A stretch of DNA of 64,000 nucleotides from Escherichia coli (GTDB taxonomy: Bacteria > Pseudomonadota > Gammaproteobacteria > Enterobacterales > Enterobacteriaceae). The stretch lies in the NCBI RefSeq assembly GCF_003790525.1, contig NZ_CP033635.1. One strand, 5' to 3'. The position numbers and the translations under genes are program-made. Below are positions 1 through 11,190 of this stretch, piece after piece (the stretch's first letter is position 1; every line of letters starts with the position of its first letter). The notes under the pieces were generated by a model. It was given only the letters and a program-made list of their open reading frames with translations, did not search any database and was not told the origin of the DNA.

Positions 1-1
1 A

Positions 2-142
2 GAGAGCTATGAAGATGAGATGTTCAGCATCAGATACTTTAAGAAGGGCTCCGCGCATATCACATTCAGAAAACCAGAACTGGTTGATCGGCTAAATGAC
101 ATCATTGCAAAGCGTTATCCGGGACAATTATCAGCCATCTGA
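2..142 (+). CDS. 3' end of an unidentified protein-coding gene (C-terminus ...FSIRYFKKGSAHITFRKPELVDRLNDIIAKRYPGQLSAI*); N-terminus lies outside the window
   Basis: Open frame running from the window edge to TGA at 140-142; followed by a hairpin and then ileX. Not recognised as the K-12 neighbour of ileX. Confidence 0.3.
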   Translation, partial: ESYEDEMFSIRYFKKGSAHITFRKPELVDRLNDIIAKRYPGQLSAI

Positions 143-190
143 GTCAGATGGAAAAAAGCTTACCTGACCCATTACCTGACCCAATTCAAA

Positions 191-235
191 GGAAAAAGAA
201 AAAGGGTTAGCTGGTTTATTAGCTAACCCTTTGTT
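191..235 (-). terminator. Rho-independent terminator downstream of ileX, probably bidirectional
   Basis: Perfect inverted repeat aagggttagct / agctaaccctt (202-231) with an 8-nt loop; on the minus strand it is followed by a T-rich run (plus-strand ggaaaaagaaa, 191-201). Confidence 0.55.
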
Positions 236-240
236 GTGTA

Positions 241-316
241 TGGTGGCCCCTGTTGGGTTTGAACCAACGACCAAGCGATTATGAGTCGCCTGCTCTAACC
301 ACTGAGCTAAGGGGCC
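241..316 (-). tRNA. ileX: tRNA-Ile2 (anticodon CAU, lysidine-type)
   Basis: Minus-strand sequence ggccccttagctcagtggttagagcaggcgactCATaatcgc...ggggccacca: 76 nt, cloverleaf-compatible, anticodon loop cuCAUaa, encoded 3' CCA. Position next to mug/rpoD matches ileX. Confidence 0.85.
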
Positions 317-440: not shown

Positions 441-947
441 ATGGTTGAGGATATTTTGGCTCCAGGGTTACGGGTCGTGTTTTGCGGTATCAACCCTGGG
501 CTTTCATCCGCCGGGACTGGTTTTCCCTTTGCTCATCCGGCAAATCGCTTCTGGAAGGTGATATATCAGGCCGGGTTTACCGACCGTCAGTTGAAGCCGC
601 AGGAGGCACAGCATCTGCTGGATTATCGTTGTGGCGTCACCAAACTGGTAGACCGTCCAACGGTGCAAGCCAATGAAGTTTCAAAGCAGGAGCTGCACGC
701 AGGCGGGCGTAAGCTAATTGAAAAAATAGAAGATTATCAGCCGCAGGCGTTGGCGATTCTGGGCAAACAAGCATATGAACAGGGATTCAGCCAGCGCGGT
801 GCACAGTGGGGGAAACAAACGCTCACCATTGGTTCGACGCAGATTTGGGTGCTGCCAAATCCCAGCGGTTTAAGTCGCGTTTCACTGGAGAAACTGGTTG
901 AAGCGTATCGCGAGCTGGACCAGGCGCTGGTAGTGCGTGGCTTGTGA
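441..947 (+). CDS. mug: G/U mismatch-specific DNA glycosylase
   Basis: 168-aa [23 protein letters not shown]... recognised as Mug; AGGAG Shine-Dalgarno 7 nt upstream. Confidence 0.95.
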
Positions 948-1003
948 AGTACAGTGTAACGAAGTTATGAGCGGGCCAGGCACCGCTCCTCACCGCTACT
1001 GGC

Positions 1004-1567
1004 TTATTCTTCCGCCAAACGGTCTCTGACTACCATAAGCGCAAATCCCAGCAGATTTTTCCCCTTCCAGTGAGATGGCACACCGGCATGGGGATGATCT
1101 TTTGCAAGGCCAATCCCCCAGATTTTATCCACCGGGCTGGCTTCAACCAGAATGCGAGGCTGCGTATTCAGCAGGAATGTTTTTAATGCCGAATGTTGGC
1201 TAAATTTATGGTAGTTCCCTTCGCAGACCAGATCAAAGCAGCAAGCTTGCCAGCATTGCTCGTCAAAGTTTGTCACCTGTCGCCCCAGCTTTTTGGCTTC
1301 TGCCGGGGTCGCCGCCGCCAGAATTCTGGCAAGTGTTTTACTGTCATTAAACAGCCGCGCTTTTCCCGCCATCATCCAGTGTTCTGCGGTGGCATAGGTT
1401 ATACCATCATAGGTAAAAGGCGAACCCTGCCACCACTGGCTAAAGCAAGAGGCGGTAATTTCGTGATTCGCGGCAGGTTGATGGCCCCAGAACCACAGGT
1501 ATTTCACCTTTTTCCCGGCATCGAGAGCGGAAATAAGGGCGGGGAGAGAGTAGTATCCTTGCTGCAT
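1004..1567 (-). CDS. NADAR (DUF1768) / YbiA-like N-glycosidase family protein
   Basis: 187-aa ORF with NADAR-type motifs (TAEHWMMAGKARLF; DKIWGIGL...WKGKNLLGFALMVVRDRL) resembling YbiA; AGGA SD upstream of the ATG at 1567. Not present between rpoD and mug in K-12 as I recall. Confidence 0.8.
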   Translation of the reverse strand: MQQGYYSLPALISALDAGKKVKYLWFWGHQPAANHEITASCFSQWWQGSPFTYDGITYATAEHWMMAGKARLFNDSKTLARILAAATPAEAKKLGRQVTNFDEQCWQACCFDLVCEGNYHKFSQHSALKTFLLNTQPRILVEASPVDKIWGIGLAKDHPHAGVPSHWKGKNLLGFALMVVRDRLAEE

Positions 1568-1581
1568 TGCCAGATTTCCTT

Positions 1582-1612
1582 AAAAAAAAGCCCTCACGAT
1601 GGAGGGCTTATG
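1582..1612 (-). terminator. rpoD rho-independent terminator
   Basis: Minus strand reads agccctc-atcgt-gagggct followed by TTTTTTTT, immediately after the rpoD stop. Confidence 0.75.
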
Positions 1613-1625
1613 CACATCTTTACAA

Positions 1626-3467
1626 TTAATCGTCCAGGAAGCTACGCAGCACTTCAGAACGGCTCGGGTGACGCAGTTTGCGCAGCGCCTTCGCTTCGAT
1701 CTGACGGATACGTTCGCGGGTAACGTCGAACTGTTTACCCACTTCTTCCAGCGTGTGGTCGGTGTTCATATCGATACCGAAACGCATACGCAGAACTTTC
1801 GCTTCACGCGCGGTCAGGCCAGCCAGCACGTCGTGCGTTGCCGCACGCAGGCTTTCGGTGGTCGCAGAATCCAGCGGCAGCTCGAGGGTGGTATCCTCGA
1901 TGAAATCCCCCAGATGCGAATCTTCATCATCACCGATCGGCGTTTCCATGGAGATTGGCTCTTTGGCGATCTTCAGCACTTTGCGGATCTTGTCTTCCGG
2001 CATCAGCATACGTTCAGCCAGTTCTTCCGGCGTCGGTTCACGGCCCATCTCTTGCAGCATCTGGCGAGAAATACGGTTGAGTTTGTTGATAGTCTCAATC
2101 ATATGCACCGGAATACGGATGGTGCGCGCCTGATCCGCGATAGAACGGGTGATCGCCTGACGGATCCACCAGGTTGCGTAGGTGGAGAACTTGTAACCAC
2201 GGCGGTATTCGAATTTATCAACCGCTTTCATCAGGCCGATGTTACCTTCCTGAATCAGGTCAAGGAACTGCAAGCCACGGTTGGTGTATTTCTTGGCGAT
2301 AGAAATAACCAGACGTAAGTTCGCTTCAACCATCTCTTTCTTCGCACGGCGGGCTTTTGCTTCACCGATGGACATACGACGGTTGATATCTTTAACCTGC
2401 TCGATGGTCAGGCCGGTTTCTTCTTCAATCTGCTGCAGTTTCTGCAGGGCGCGATGCACTTCTTCAGAGACATCGTGCAGTTTTTCCGACCACGGCTTGT
2501 TCATCGCAATTGCCGCGTTGAACCAGGTATCGCTGGTTTCGTTGCCGGTAAACAGGGTAATGAAGTTTTTCTTCGGCATTTTGCACTGCTCAACGCAGAG
2601 CTTCATGATCAGACGTTCTTGCGTACGAACGCGGTCCATCATGACGCGCATGCTGTTGACCAGGTAGTCAAACTGCTTCGGCACCAGGCGGAACTGTTTA
2701 AATACTTCAGACAGTTTCAGGATCTCTTCCTGAGCAGCAGCGTGACTGCGACCTTTCGCTTTGATGGTGTCACGCGTTACAACGTACTGAGCGCGCAGTT
2801 CCGCAAATTTTTCGCGAGCCAGTTCCGGGTCGATGCTGTTGTCATCATCGGCGCTGTCGTCATCGCCATCTTCTTCGTCTTCATCTTCGTCATCGTCCAG
2901 ATCTTCCTGGGAAAGCTCAGAACCGACGTGAGTGGCGGTAGGTGCCAGATCTTCTTCTGCGTTCGGGTCAACAAAGCCGGTGATCAGATCGGACAGACGC
3001 GCTTCTTCTGCTTCAACACGATCGTACTGTTCCAGCAGATAGGTGATCGCTTCCGGATATTCAGCAACGGAGCATTGAACCTGGTTGATCCCGTCTTCAA
3101 TACGCTTAGCGATGTCAATTTCGCCTTCGCGGGTCAACAGTTCAACGGTGCCCATTTCACGCATGTACATGCGTACCGGGTCAGTCGTGCGCCCGATTTC
3201 AGATTCCACGCTGGAAAGCACCTGCGCGGCGGCTTCGGCAGCATCTTCGTCCGCGGTGTTTTCAGCCAGCATCAGATCATCGGCATCCGGTGCTTCTTCC
3301 ATCACCTGAATGCCCATGTCGTTGATCATTTGGATGATGTCTTCGATCTGATCTGAATCGACGATATCTTCCGGCAGATGGTCATTGACCTCGGCATAGG
3401 TCAGATAGCCTTGCTCCTTACCACGGGTGACAAGAAGTTTCAGCTGTGACTGCGGGTTTTGCTCCAT
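1626..3467 (-). CDS. rpoD: RNA polymerase sigma-70 factor
   Basis: 613-aa ORF, full-length match to E. coli RpoD (acidic region [14 protein letters not shown]; regions 2-4). Confidence 0.98.
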
Positions 3468-5970: not shown

Positions 5971-6984
5971 ATGCGTGTACTGGGTATTGAAACTTCCTGC
6001 GATGAAACCGGCATCGCCATTTACGACGATGAAAAAGGTTTGTTAGCCAACCAATTGTATAGTCAGGTGAAATTGCACGCTGACTACGGCGGCGTCGTGC
6101 CTGAACTGGCCTCCCGCGATCACGTGCGTAAAACCGTACCGTTGATCCAGGAGGCGCTGAAAGAGTCTGGTTTAACGGCAAAAGACATTGATGCTGTGGC
6201 CTATACCGCAGGCCCAGGATTAGTCGGCGCACTGCTGGTTGGCGCGACCGTGGGGCGTTCTCTGGCGTTTGCCTGGGACGTTCCGGCAATCCCGGTACAC
6301 CATATGGAAGGGCATCTGTTAGCGCCGATGCTGGAAGATAACCCACCGGCATTTCCGTTTGTGGCGCTGCTGGTTTCCGGCGGTCATACGCAGTTAATCA
6401 GCGTGACTGGCATTGGTCAGTACGAGCTGCTTGGCGAGTCTATCGATGATGCTGCTGGTGAAGCGTTTGATAAAACCGCGAAGCTGCTGGGGCTGGATTA
6501 TCCTGGCGGGCCATTACTGTCGAAAATGGCGGCTCAGGGTACTGCCGGGCGCTTTGTCTTCCCGCGCCCGATGACCGACCGTCCGGGGCTGGATTTCAGC
6601 TTTTCTGGTCTGAAAACCTTCGCGGCGAACACGATTCGTGACAACGGCACCGACGACCAGACGCGTGCTGATATCGCCCGCGCCTTTGAAGATGCGGTGG
6701 TCGATACGTTGATGATTAAGTGTAAGCGAGCACTGGATCAGACGGGCTTTAAGCGACTGGTAATGGCAGGCGGCGTGAGTGCTAACCGCACGTTACGGGC
6801 GAAGCTGGCTGAAATGATGAAAAAACGCCGTGGCGAAGTGTTCTACGCGCGTCCGGAATTTTGTACTGATAACGGCGCGATGATCGCCTATGCCGGAATG
6901 GTGCGGTTTAAAGCAGGCGCGACGGCGGATCTCGGCGTTAGCGTGCGTCCGCGCTGGCCGCTGGCAGAGTTACCGGCCGCGTAA
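5971..6984 (+). CDS. tsaD: tRNA N6-adenosine threonylcarbamoyltransferase (t6A synthesis)
   Basis: 337-aa [23 protein letters not shown]...; divergent from rpsU as in E. coli. Confidence 0.95.
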
Positions 6985-7026
6985 AACTATTAGGTGCCGG
7001 AGAGTCACTTCCGGCACCGTCCTCAC

Positions 7027-8490
7027 TTAAAGCAACACCACGGGCATCCACAGTAAGCCGGTAATCACCAGCAATACGAGGAATATCAGCCCAAAAATTG
7101 CCCCCAGTCGCCAGTAATCCACCGTTGGCAGATAACCACTACCGTAGTAAATCGGGCTGGGTCCGGTGGCGTATGGCGTAAGAATGCTCCCCAGACCAAT
7201 TGCCGCGCCAACCATCAGGCAGAATACCGGCAGCGGGATTTCCGGCATCGCCAGCGCGGCGGCAATCATCATCGGCGCGAGAGCGGAGGTATACGCCGTG
7301 GCGCTGGCGAAAAAGTAGCGCAGTAGATAAAACACCACAATCAACGCCACCATCACTATCGTTGGCGAATAACCGCTTAAGCTGCCTGCTAACAGTTTGC
7401 CAAACCAGCTAATAAAACCGGTGTTGTTGAGTCCGGTAGCGAGGGTGATAAGCGAGGCCAGCCAGAAGAAAACGTTCCACGCGGCTTTATTACTGACAAT
7501 GTCGTCCCAACTGATAATGCGCAGAAGCAGCATCAGCGCCACCACGCTGTAACCGACCATCGCGGCATCGATATAATCACCGCCGAAAATCCACAGCACC
7601 AGCGCGCCTACCATCAGCCCCAGCATCCGTTTTTCACGCGAACAGAGCGGGCCCATTGCCTGCAGTTCCGTCTCTGCCCAGCGCGGCACCTGATCACCAG
7701 ACTTCAGTACCGGCGGGTACAGCACGTAAGCCAGCCAGGGAACCAGCAGAACCAGTAAAATACTGAGCGGCAACATCCCGAGGAACCAGTCGCCCCAACT
7801 CAGTGTGGCGTGAGATGCGCTTTTCATCAGGCCAATTAACAGCAAGTTAGGTGCCATCGCCGTCAGGAAAATGGCGCTGGTCACGCAGTCGGCAACAATC
7901 CCCATCCACATGATGTACGAGCCAATGCTGCGCGAACTGCTGTCGTTTGGTTGTGATTGATAGAGCGGTGGCAGGTTACGGATGATGGGATAGATAATCC
8001 CCGCACCACGCGCCGAGTTGGACGGTGTTACAGGTGCCAGGATAAGCTCGGAGAACATCACCGCATAGCCGAGAAACAGCGTGCGATGCCCCATCTTTTT
8101 CACCAGAATCAGCGCGATACGTCGCCCCAGCCCGGTTTTTTCATAGCCTGTGCCAAACATAAAGGCGGCGAAAATCAGCCAGATAACCGAATTAGAAAAA
8201 CCAGAAACCGCCCAGGAGAGGGATTTGGCGGTGAACTTAAAACCTGGCTGGGCGAGCTGCTCCGGGCTGAACAGCAGCCAGGGAGAGAGAATGGCGATAA
8301 TGGAGATACCCACCATCGCCACCACGGCACCCGGCACGGGTTCGAGGATCAGTCCAACGATCACGCCAGTAAAAACAGCAAAGTAGAGCCAGGTATGACT
8401 CTCCAGCCCTGCGGGAACCGGAATTAGAGCAATAATGGCGATGACCGCCAGCGGCGCAAGGTATCGCCACCATTCAGTGGAAGGTTTCAT
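7027..8490 (-). CDS. ttdT: L-tartrate/succinate antiporter
   Basis: 487-aa polytopic membrane protein (DASS family) immediately downstream of ttdAB. Confidence 0.9.
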   Translation of the reverse strand: MKPSTEWWRYLAPLAVIAIIALIPVPAGLESHTWLYFAVFTGVIVGLILEPVPGAVVAMVGISIIAILSPWLLFSPEQLAQPGFKFTAKSLSWAVSGFSNSVIWLIFAAFMFGTGYEKTGLGRRIALILVKKMGHRTLFLGYAVMFSELILAPVTPSNSARGAGIIYPIIRNLPPLYQSQPNDSSSRSIGSYIMWMGIVADCVTSAIFLTAMAPNLLLIGLMKSASHATLSWGDWFLGMLPLSILLVLLVPWLAYVLYPPVLKSGDQVPRWAETELQAMGPLCSREKRMLGLMVGALVLWIFGGDYIDAAMVGYSVVALMLLLRIISWDDIVSNKAAWNVFFWLASLITLATGLNNTGFISWFGKLLAGSLSGYSPTIVMVALIVVFYLLRYFFASATAYTSALAPMMIAAALAMPEIPLPVFCLMVGAAIGLGSILTPYATGPSPIYYGSGYLPTVDYWRLGAIFGLIFLVLLVITGLLWMPVVLL

Positions 8491-8537
8491 CGTGTTATGC
8501 CTGCGAAAAAGGAGAGGGGCGAGCCTCTCCGGGAGGG

Positions 8538-9143
8538 TTATTTGATGTAATGGACGTGCTCGCAGATCTCTTCCACGATGGGATCGCGGCGTTCGGCGAA
8601 CAGCTTTTTGTTTTCGGCTATCAGGTTGTTGCCGTGGGTATCAATAGAGACAATCAGCGGGCCGAACTCTTTGACCCGGCAGACCCACAGTGACTCCGGC
8701 ATCCCGAGTTCTGTCCAGTGCACTTCTTCAATCTCTTCCACCTGGGTTGCCGCCAGTACTGCGCAGCCTGCCGGGAAAATCACATGTAGCGCCTTGAATT
8801 TCTGGCAGCCTTCTTCGGTCAGCGGCCCCATTCCGCCTTTGCCGACCACCAGTTTCACGCCGGTCTGTTCGATAAATTCACGTTCAAAACTTTCCATACG
8901 CATACTGGTTGTCGGGCCGACGGATACCATCTCCCATTTGTCGCCGTTTTTGCGCACGATGGGGCCAGCGTGGAAAATCGCTTTGCCGTTGAGATCGTAA
9001 GGGATCGGACGTTTGAGTTCGATCAAGCGACGGTGACAAACGTCACGGCAGGTCACCAGCGTACCGGTCAGGTAGATCACATCGCCGACGCGAATATCTT
9101 GCAGATCTTCAGCTTTGATCGGGGTTGTCAGGATCTTTTTCAT
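8538..9143 (-). CDS. ttdB: L(+)-tartrate dehydratase beta subunit
   Basis: 201-aa ORF; its start overlaps the ttdA stop (ATGA at 9140-9143). Confidence 0.9.
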
Positions 9144-10051
9144 AACGCGCTCCGGGTGTGAGACAGATTTTCAAAGGTGAGATCGGCATGAACCAGCAGT
9201 GTGCCGCGACGATGCGCCCAGCAGCCTGTAGAAACAGCAACGCCGATGGTTGACGGATGGCGGGCGGCAGATTCGATATGTACGCCCATCACTGAACTGT
9301 TGCCAGTCAGCCCTTGTGGACCAATCCCCAGACGGTTGAGTCCTTCTTCCAGGCGTAGCTCCAGCTCTGCCGCTTTCGGATTGGGGTGGCGGCTGCCAAT
9401 CGGGCGCAAAATGGCTTTACGCGAGAGCACGGCGGCGGTTTCCACCGAGGTAGCGATGCCAACGCCCACAAGTACCGGCGGACAGGCGTTTACGGCGAGG
9501 GTGGAGATATTTTCGAAGACGAATTTCACTACGCCTTCGTAGCCTTCTGACGGCATTAACACTTTCGAGCGGCCTGGTAGCGTGCAGCCGCCGCCTGCCA
9601 TGTAAACTTCGATTTCCGCATCGTCATTGTCGGGGATGATGTCCCAGGTGACCCACGGTACACCGCTGCCGGTATTTTTGCCGGTGTTTACTTCGTCAAA
9701 AATTTCTACCGCATTGTGACGCAGTGGCGCTTTGACGGTTGCCTCTTCCACGGCTTGTTTGAGTATGCTTTGCAGCTCGCCAAGCAGTGGGAAACGGGAA
9801 CCGACCTTAACAAAAAACATGATTTCGCCGGTGTCCTGACAGGCAGGACGATTCAGGTCGATCGCTTTTTGCATGTTATCGAACATCGTGTGGTAGATGA
9901 TTTTCCCCATCGACGATGTTTCGGCATCCTTTAGCTGTTTTAGTTTGTCCACCACGTCATCGGGCATTCGGGTAGAAATCATGGCGGTAAAGTTAGCGAC
10001 AATCTCCGTCAACTTATTCACTGCCTGTTGCTTATTACTTTCGCTCATCAT
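9140..10051 (-). CDS. ttdA: L(+)-tartrate dehydratase alpha subunit
   Basis: 303-aa ORF of the fumarate-hydratase class I / tartrate-dehydratase alpha family. Confidence 0.9.
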
Positions 10052-10257
10052 GGCAACTCCAGTTTATGTATTTGTCTGGAAAAATTCACCGCCACAAACT
10101 ACCACTAAAAATGTGGTTTTATATTTTTTGCTGCCGTGAATATGTAATTCACAGTTCGTGAATCAACGCGAAAATAAGAATGAATATTGCGCCAGAGCAG
10201 GGAATGGCAATGTTTTACGAAATACACTGCGCTTATCACAACTGCGGATAATTAACG

Positions 10258-11190
10258 ATGCTGAATAGCTGGCCTTTAGCCAAAGATTTGCAGGTACTGG
10301 TAGAAATCGTCCACAGCGGGAGTTTTAGCGCCGCAGCGGCGACGCTTGGGCAGACGCCTGCATTTGTCACCAAGCGGATCCAAATCCTTGAAAATACGCT
10401 GGCAACAACGCTGCTGAACCGCTCCGCTCGCGGCGTGGCGCTGACTGAAAGTGGCCAACGTTGTTACGAGCATGCGCTGGAAATCCTCACCCAATATCAG
10501 CGACTGGTCGATGACGTCACGCAAATCAAAACGCGCCCGGAGGGGATGATTCGTATTGGTTGCAGTTTTGGTTTTGGGCGCAGCCATATTGCGCCAGCCA
10601 TTACCGAACTGATGCGCAATTATCCTGAGTTACAGGTGCATTTTGAATTGTTCGATCGGCAAATTGATTTAGTGCAGGATAATATTGATCTGGATATTCG
10701 TATTAATGACGAAATTCCTGATTATTATATTGCGCATCTGTTAACGAAAAATAAAAGAATATTATGCGCAGCACCTGAGTATCTGCAAAAATATCCGCAG
10801 CCACAATCCTTACAGGAATTAAGTCGTCATGATTGTCTGGTGACCAAAGAGCGCGATATGACCCACGGAATATGGGAGTTGGGGAACGGTCAGGAGAAAA
10901 AATCGGTGAAGGTAAGCGGGCATCTTTCCTCCAATAGCGGCGAGATAGTGTTGCAATGGGCGCTGGAGGGCAAAGGGATTATGTTGCGTTCCGAGTGGGA
11001 TGTGTTGCCGTTTCTGGAGAGTGGCAAACTGGTGCGAGTATTGCCGGAGTATGCACAAAGCGCCAATATCTGGGCTGTTTACCGGGAGCCGCTCTATCGC
11101 AGCATGAAATTACGTGTCTGCGTGGAATTTCTGGCGGCATGGTGCCAGCAACGGCTGGGCAAGCCCGACGAAGGCTATCAGGTCATGTAA
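10258..11190 (+). CDS. ttdR: LysR-family transcriptional activator of ttdAB
   Basis: 310-aa ORF with an N-terminal LysR HTH; divergent from ttdA. Confidence 0.85.

Follow-up and report, generated by a model that had tools for sequence, protein, structure and literature searches.

A stand-alone NADAR gene directly behind rpsU-dnaG-rpoD in a minority of Escherichia coli

The window analyzed here, the whole 64,000-nucleotide stretch of Escherichia coli contig NZ_CP033635.1 (RefSeq assembly GCF_003790525.1), carries a 187-aa open reading frame (ORF) of the NADAR family between rpoD and mug (1004..1567, minus strand). Judged by sequence, this gene is the already published sigma-70-linked NADAR and not a discovery, and it very probably encodes a functional stand-alone NADAR glycohydrolase, which would protect or repair nucleic acids and may be expressed by transcriptional read-through. 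This reading is carried by the identity, domain, fold, conserved residues, synteny, and selection of the gene as found here, and by the guanine-ADP-ribose activity that the literature reports for a 99%-identical protein and that would be expected for the window protein. About 1% of E. coli, including the enteropathogenic E. coli (EPEC) prototype E2348/69, keep NADAR at the end of the rpsU-dnaG-rpoD operon. The present comparison adds that the slot and its terminator appear to be old and common to Enterobacteriaceae, that the cassette seems to have been exchanged between genera, and that a link to mug is unsupported. Interest now attaches to the physiological substrate, to the conserved coupling with a terminator, and to the polymorphism between carriers and non-carriers.

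Identity, fold, and conserved residues

The window protein is identical at 185 of 187 residues (substitutions T78I and C105R; genes 99.3% identical) to WP_001183948.1 from EPEC O127:H6 strain E2348/69, the accession that Table S1 of Cihlova et al. 2024 (Toxins 16:208; PMC11125620) gives for the E. coli 'bacterial stand-alone' NADAR. The two are the same gene by all criteria tested and occupy the same slot directly downstream of rpsU-dnaG-rpoD, differing in these two substitutions and in a 10-bp spacer difference toward mug. The ORF is intact in the window (minus strand, ATG at 1567, TAA at 1004-1006). A preliminary description of this interval, made from the letters alone, had recognized a 187-aa NADAR-domain ORF and proposed a hidden Markov model search for the domain. 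That assignment was borne out by a full-length match to Pfam PF08719 (NADAR / DUF1768; E=1.3e-53, residues 31-184 against model positions 7-162 of 163), by NCBIfam TIGR02464 (162.5 bits, above the curated cut-off of 73.7), an equivalog_domain model with broad coverage of the NADAR core, and by structural matches in the PDB.

An AlphaFold model built with 54 orthologues as input (predicted local distance difference test score, pLDDT, 94.3; predicted template modeling score, pTM, 0.90) gave two structures as the sole significant Foldseek matches in the PDB, namely 8BAU (E=1.2e-10, template modeling score [TM] 0.75) and 2B3W (E=3.6e-8, TM 0.70/0.78), the latter being K-12 YbiA. The predicted model has the YbiA-like alpha-helical core fold. 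The closest solved structure is 8BAU, the Phytophthora nicotianae NADAR in complex with ADP-ribose (phmmer E=3.7e-16; PMC11543638), which is eukaryotic and only 30% identical but shares all but one of the named residues, its R93 standing opposite Cys110 of the window protein. When residues were aligned to 8BAU, with residue roles taken from Schuller et al. 2023 (PMC11543638), E62, K69, R96, W106, E142, D147, and W150 of the window protein corresponded to E43, K50, R79, W89, E125, D130, and W133. Across the 54 orthologues, R96 was nearly invariant and the other six of these catalytic and ADP-ribose-binding residues were invariant. The same alignment showed invariance of W27, W45, E62, K92, E142, and D147, to which W53, W71, E87, K117, E167, and D172 of Streptomyces coelicolor SCO5665 map (mapping made via the Streptomyces canus orthologue). 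At the subfamily-defining position, YbiA-type and stand-alone NADARs carry Glu, DarT1-linked antitoxins Asp, and phage NADARs His (PMC11543638), and the window protein has Glu142. Purifying selection on the gene is strong, with ratios of nonsynonymous to synonymous divergence (dN/dS) of 0.065-0.078 in comparisons with three other genera.

The family has been characterized biochemically. The purified sigma-70-linked NADAR of EPEC cleaved ADP-ribose off guanosine in single-stranded DNA (ssDNA) and was inactive on thymidine-ADP-ribose (PMC11125620), so that the removal of ADP-ribose from DNA bases, mentioned in the preliminary description for some members of the family, holds for the 99%-identical protein. 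In the study of Mikolcevic et al. 2026, an 'EcNADAR' that falls in one group with SCO5665 is reported to remove both guanine-linked (G-ADPr) and cytosine-linked (C-ADPr) ADP-ribose in ssDNA and in single-stranded RNA (PMC12945103). SCO5665, which belongs to the same 'NADAR' family in a four-family scheme, takes ADP-ribose off guanine and cytosine alike, whether in DNA or RNA (PMC12945103), and all of its named residues are kept in the window protein, to which Streptomyces orthologues are 57-61% identical. Unlike the E. coli gene, which has no known partner and stands in another context, SCO5665 is paired in the genome with an endogenous transferase, ScARP.

The slot between rpoD and mug

On the minus strand of the window, the order of ORFs is dnaG, rpoD, NADAR, with rpsU upstream of dnaG according to the RefSeq annotation of strain SMS-3-5. 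The NADAR gene lies on the same strand as, and directly downstream of, this operon; it is co-directional with rpoD and convergent with mug. Neighbors were annotated from the RefSeq records for identical DNA in strains SC516 and SMS-3-5. The interval of the preliminary description (1004-1612) comprises the coding sequence (CDS), its leader, and a terminator hairpin. The features of the slot are as follows.

1626..3467, minus strand: rpoD (sigma-70), the upstream neighbor and final gene of the rpsU-dnaG-rpoD operon (ORF and RefSeq annotation of identical DNA)
1582..1609, minus strand: rpoD intrinsic-terminator-like hairpin (8-bp stem, 6-nt loop) plus 8 T, between rpoD and NADAR (terminator scan, folding)
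1577..1581, minus strand: Shine-Dalgarno-like AAGGA, 9 nt upstream of the NADAR ATG (read from the sequence)
1004..1567, minus strand: NADAR CDS, of the stand-alone ('sigma-70-linked') ADP-ribosyl glycohydrolase family, 187 aa (ORF, Pfam, NCBIfam, AlphaFold, dN/dS)
981..1000: 10-bp tandem duplication CACCGCTCCT / CACCGCTACT in the NADAR-mug spacer (repeat search)
969..988: G+C-rich inverted repeat GAGCGG-N8-CCGCTC in the NADAR-mug spacer (read from the sequence)
941..1625: segment differing from K-12, a probable allelic replacement of the whole rpoD-mug intergenic region (alignment to W3110)
441..947, plus strand: mug (G/U mismatch-specific DNA glycosylase), the convergent downstream neighbor (ORF and RefSeq annotation of identical DNA)

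Read on the minus strand, the hairpin after the rpoD stop is AAGCCCTC-CATCGT-GAGGGCTT (1609..1588; folding energy -12.9 kcal/mol), next to which stands the run of 8 T (1589..1582). The gap between rpoD and NADAR is 58 nt, with 14 nt from the end of the T-run to the NADAR ATG, and the spacer between the NADAR and mug stops is 56 nt (948..1003). Both the terminator scan and the folding agree with the preliminary description, which had placed an rpoD terminator hairpin before the gene and had given these two distances as 15 nt and 57 bp, figures that differ from those found here by no more than one. The NADAR-mug spacer has a folding energy of -20.1 kcal/mol. Its inverted repeat lacks a T-run on both strands and was unreported by the terminator scan, and its 10-bp unit is present as a single copy in E2348/69 (a 10-bp alignment gap relative to the window).

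With its 8 T, the hairpin looks like an efficient terminator. A promoter scan found no sigma-70 promoter-like site between the rpoD stop and the NADAR ATG, and no minus-strand promoter upstream of the ATG out to position 2000, where the scan ended; a sigma-70 promoter of the gene's own was therefore rejected. The gene may have an unrecognized or alternative-sigma promoter. Low-level or conditional read-through of the rpoD terminator is plausibly the simplest model of expression, because all carrier loci that span the gap have kept the hairpin. The model accords with the preliminary description, according to which expression may depend on such read-through, and the lack of a promoter-like site in the gap fits it. 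Such a model would refine the wording of Cihlova et al. 2024, who describe the E. coli NADAR gene as 'integrated into' the conserved operon and do not mention the hairpin between rpoD and NADAR, or mug (PMC11125620). The AAGGA of the leader is unchanged in the loci of E2348/69, the Salmonella assembly, and the Escherichia-like contig described below.

Among complete E. coli genomes, the NADAR gene was found in 62 of 5,426 (1.1%), including SMS-3-5 and E2348/69, with both flanks present every time. In K-12 (W3110), the slot holds no gene, as the preliminary description had said; 78 bp of sequence unrelated to the window separate rpoD and mug there, and homology between the window and W3110 ends at the last two mug codons and directly after the rpoD stop. 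A repeat search found no direct or inverted mobile-element repeats flanking 941..1625, the G+C content (51.7%) is similar to that of the flanks, and no homologue with >60% identity was present on any plasmid or phage record searched. On these grounds, insertion by a mobile element was rejected. Because terminal repeats and plasmid or phage homologues are absent and the G+C content is flank-like, the polymorphism resembles a pair of alternative alleles that span the entire intergenic region and are exchanged via the conserved flanks. A candidate remnant of the left hairpin arm in the K-12 spacer (GGCCCTCTG vs AGCCCTCCA) was discarded as too short to tell from chance. Cihlova et al. 2024 place the sigma-70-linked NADAR in Shiga toxin-producing E. 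coli O157:H7 (PMC11125620), which does not match the genome labels here: no O157:H7 label occurs among 60 listed carriers (of 62), and the two O157:H7-labeled genomes in the sampled rows have an empty, K-12-type site.

The comparison of rpoD-mug synteny across Enterobacteriaceae that the preliminary description had suggested revealed the order rpoD-NADAR-mug in eight further loci, where NADAR is 64% to 96% identical to the window protein. The identities below are at the amino-acid level against the window proteins. In the loci without a value for RpoD, rpoD is partial and the stretches present match 100%, and the Citrobacter sp. R56 locus starts inside the NADAR gene, so that only its NADAR-mug side could be checked.

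Escherichia-like contig (L092): NADAR 94%, Mug 98.8%, RpoD 100%
Assembly labeled Salmonella enterica (L003): NADAR 96%, Mug 86%, RpoD 97.6%
Superficieibacter (L006): NADAR 80%, Mug 76%, RpoD 94%
Citrobacter sp. R56, partial locus (L014): NADAR 77%, Mug 86%, RpoD no value
Further assembly (L093): NADAR 75%, Mug 86%, RpoD 96%
Intestinirhabdus alba (L008): NADAR 74%, Mug 85%, RpoD 96%
Further assembly (L094): NADAR 69%, Mug 76%, RpoD no value
Citrobacter youngae (L016): NADAR 64%, Mug 84%, RpoD 97%

All seven of the other loci that cover the gap have a G+C-rich hairpin and a T-run between rpoD and the NADAR start. The stem is GCCCTC...GAGGGC in six of them; that of C. youngae, at the corresponding position, differs in sequence. 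Divergence of the gene does not follow that of its flanks everywhere. In Superficieibacter, it does match them (nucleotide identity 75% for NADAR and 71% for mug), whereas in the Salmonella assembly NADAR is ~94% identical at the nucleotide level and mug 72-83%, with synonymous divergence (dS) of 0.25 for NADAR vs 1.77 for mug. In C. youngae, the nucleotide-level comparison gave 64% for NADAR and 76% for mug, and the NADAR gene is a more distant allele resembling Serratia sequences. Simple vertical inheritance fits Superficieibacter but was rejected for the Salmonella assembly and C. youngae, given the mismatch of identity and dS with mug. Because the NADAR gene of the Salmonella assembly is far closer to that of E. 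coli than its mug is, the data point to a cassette exchanged later between Escherichia and this assembly. More generally, since rpoD-NADAR-mug recurs across Enterobacteriaceae with uneven divergence, the slot appears to be old, most E. coli appear to have lost its content, and replacement of that content seems to have been occasional. Homologous replacement of the rpoD-mug spacer may carry the cassette from one genus to another. Within Escherichia, two NADAR allele lineages (94% identical) were found, the second of them in the Escherichia-like contig (L092 4001-4564), where the gene is more diverged than Mug and RpoD in an Escherichia background.

Activity and alternative readings

If the gene product acts as its published counterpart does, it would hydrolyze the N-glycosidic bond between ADP-ribose and a nucleobase in ssDNA and RNA and restore the base unmodified. 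The target base would be guanine, as shown for the 99%-identical protein, and probably also cytosine. Catalysis would depend on the conserved Glu62, Lys69, and Glu142, with ADP-ribose held by Arg96, Trp106, Asp147, and Trp150 and with Trp27 and Trp45 positioned toward the base. The likeliest role would be protection or repair of nucleic acids against base-targeting ADP-ribosyltransferase toxins of phage, competitor, or endogenous origin. The protein would not be a dedicated antitoxin, because no toxin gene adjoins the NADAR gene. Located behind rpoD at the operon's 3' end (rpsU-dnaG-rpoD), a slot that is presumably old in Enterobacteriaceae, the gene would be transcribed at a low level, probably via read-through of the conserved rpoD terminator.

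Several points weigh against this reading. The EPEC protein rescued DarT1 toxicity only partially and more weakly than the cognate antitoxin did (PMC11125620), E. coli has no known natural NADAR substrate or source of ADP-ribosylation, and neither the ORFs nor the RefSeq annotation place an ADP-ribosyltransferase or other defense gene next to the NADAR gene. R93 of 8BAU, which contacts a phosphate of ADP-ribose, is replaced by Cys110. The cut-off of TIGR02464, a riboflavin N-glycosidase model, is passed, which leaves room for a metabolite substrate. A canonical 8-T terminator stands 14 nt upstream, with no promoter-like site, and NADAR expression is only predicted. In addition, the identification of the 'EcNADAR' of the 2026 study with the EPEC protein is a probable one, drawn from its cloning reference.

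A bolder extension of the read-through model holds that the hairpin is a regulated read-through point that ties a nucleic-acid de-ADP-ribosylase to the operon whose products are the initiators for translation, replication, and transcription, giving a housekeeping-coupled immunity against base-ADP-ribosylating toxins delivered by phages or competitors that is kept by balancing selection in a minority of E. coli. The idea can be entertained because in at least five named genera the slot is kept, together with its hairpin and the strong purifying selection; we nevertheless regard it as unlikely.

Among the alternatives, the one that survives best takes the protein as a YbiA-type damage-control N-glycosidase for riboflavin intermediates (5-amino-6-ribosylamino-uracil phosphate and its precursor), with activity on nucleic acids as a side reaction, and we give it little credence. 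The riboflavin activity of E. coli YbiA and of plant homologues was reportedly described by Frelin et al. 2015. NADAR papers (including PMC11543638) cite this activity, TIGR02464 is named 'riboflavin biosynthesis intermediates N-glycosidase' and is passed with the score given above, and several RefSeq records name the gene ybiA on that basis. The resemblance to K-12 YbiA covers the core fold and the Glu by which the scheme of de Souza and Aravind sets the YbiA subfamily apart. However, identity is only ~29%, and K-12 YbiA is shorter (168 residues in the PDB chain) and has no counterpart of the ~47 extra N-terminal residues of the window protein, which are predicted to form a helix and a strand of their own. 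K-12 YbiA is encoded in the LexA-controlled dinG-ybiB operon and gives no DarT1 rescue, yet it too cleaves guanine-ADP-ribose, and the 99%-identical EPEC protein acts directly on ADP-ribosylated DNA (PMC11125620). In length, N-terminal extension, and genomic context (dinG-ybiB), the gene is not the ybiA orthologue, and the riboflavin label 'ybiA' used by RefSeq is probably misleading for the sigma-70-linked subfamily. RefSeq labels for identical DNA are themselves inconsistent, being mostly 'NADAR family protein' and in newer records 'ybiA: riboflavin biosynthesis intermediates N-glycosidase'.

The neighborhoods of more distant orthologues bear on the same question. The orthologue group is strikingly well conserved, extending at 55-65% identity to Bacteroidota, Streptomyces, and others, and clustering of the neighboring ORFs in 80 species-representative orthologue loci gave the following recurrent neighbors of NADAR in Bacteroidota.

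NrtR-like Nudix regulator: 22 loci
RNA 2'-phosphotransferase KptA/Tpt1: 22 loci
ADP-ribosylglycohydrolase: 20 loci
Phosphoribosyl pyrophosphate (PRPP) synthetase: 17 loci
Nicotinamide phosphoribosyltransferase (NAMPT)-type phosphoribosyltransferase: 14 loci
Metallophosphatase: 14 loci
TIGR02452 macro-like protein: 11 loci

No riboflavin gene occurs among the annotated recurrent neighbor families. Because the Bacteroidota neighbors are genes of nicotinamide adenine dinucleotide (NAD) and ADP-ribose, this context, which lies behind the NADAR name, favors ADP-ribose chemistry over riboflavin metabolism.

A functional partnership with Mug is less probable still. It would have both enzymes act on related exocyclic-amine adducts (ADP-ribosyl-C and -G for NADAR; ethenocytosine and uracil for Mug) in a shared repair pathway. 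Mug removes N4-adducted cytosines. The NADAR family for its part removes cytidine-ADP-ribose (PMC12945103), and in each of the nine Enterobacteriaceae loci with NADAR that were compared, the window among them, the gene adjoins mug. The slot accounts for this adjacency: even where the NADAR gene is missing, as in K-12, rpoD stands next to mug. Moreover, the convergent orientation makes co-transcription impossible, and the pairing is missing outside Enterobacteriaceae, where none of the 75 orthologue loci (of the 80, by tblastn) has a Mug/uracil-DNA glycosylase or RpoD homologue within 4 kb. Strain E2348/69 combines an intact NADAR gene with a mug pseudogene that has a premature stop (Gln122 to TAG; L011 1948-2454), and in the Salmonella assembly the dS values given above indicate separate histories of the two genes. 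The comparative evidence thus argues against a functional link, which the preliminary description had rightly called unproven.

Among characterized relatives with a toxin partner, DarG1 of E. coli C7 belongs to the same superfamily and shares the chemistry of guanine de-ADP-ribosylation. Unlike the window gene, whose neighbors are rpoD and mug and whose product has Glu142, the darG1 gene adjoins DarT1, and DarG1 has an Asp (D171) in place of the Glu and a basic, DNA-binding N-terminal extension, gives full DarT1 rescue, and does not remove cytidine-ADP-ribose. That the window gene is part of a toxin-antitoxin or anti-phage system (DarTG1-like, YarT-YbiA-like, or the PADLOC candidates PDC-M42 or DS32) with its partner encoded elsewhere is the least likely reading of all, since the PADLOC PDC-M42C match (135.5 bits) spans the generic NADAR domain only, the NCBIfam DS32_2 match is weak (31.3 bits, far under the cut-off of 240), no transferase, defense gene, or other partner is adjacent, and Glu142 is the residue of YbiA and stand-alone families and not the Asp typical of DarT1-linked antitoxins, which leaves the partial DarT1 rescue by the EPEC protein (PMC11125620) in its favor.

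Flanking regions and other loci

Sequences beyond the slot vary widely. Past mug, the Salmonella assembly (L003 6600-10564) and Superficieibacter (L006 6500-10483) carry a small phage-like block with major capsid E, head decoration, AlpA, and Nu1-type small terminase genes, which looks like a capsid-forming phage satellite and is probably located at the ileX tRNA as well. In Intestinirhabdus alba, three assemblies (L008, L009, and L010, about 6300-10564) differ completely just past mug, with one set of genes per assembly: P2-like tail genes, insertion sequence (IS) elements with a GmrSD-like gene, or lysis genes. The flank past mug in I. alba is an integration hotspot. An orthologue of the NADAR gene in Serratia silvae (63% identical; L015 38-3192) is not located at rpoD-mug and has an Rhs-family toxin gene and a small putative immunity gene ~800 nt upstream.

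In the window, the corresponding region beyond mug contains a tRNA gene, which an Rfam scan of the interval for structured RNA reported as its sole match (244-316).

241-316, minus strand: tRNA with anticodon CAT, tRNA-Ile (ileX) in RefSeq (RefSeq annotation)

Past the 3' end of ileX, window positions 1-240 do not hold nfeF, unlike K-12, SC516, and SMS-3-5, and contain instead the end of a DUF4942-domain gene (ORF 20-142), a sequence of which many E. coli genomes have as many as 6 copies. Because this multi-copy DUF4942 sequence replaces nfeF, the start of the window is probably the edge of an island integrated at ileX.

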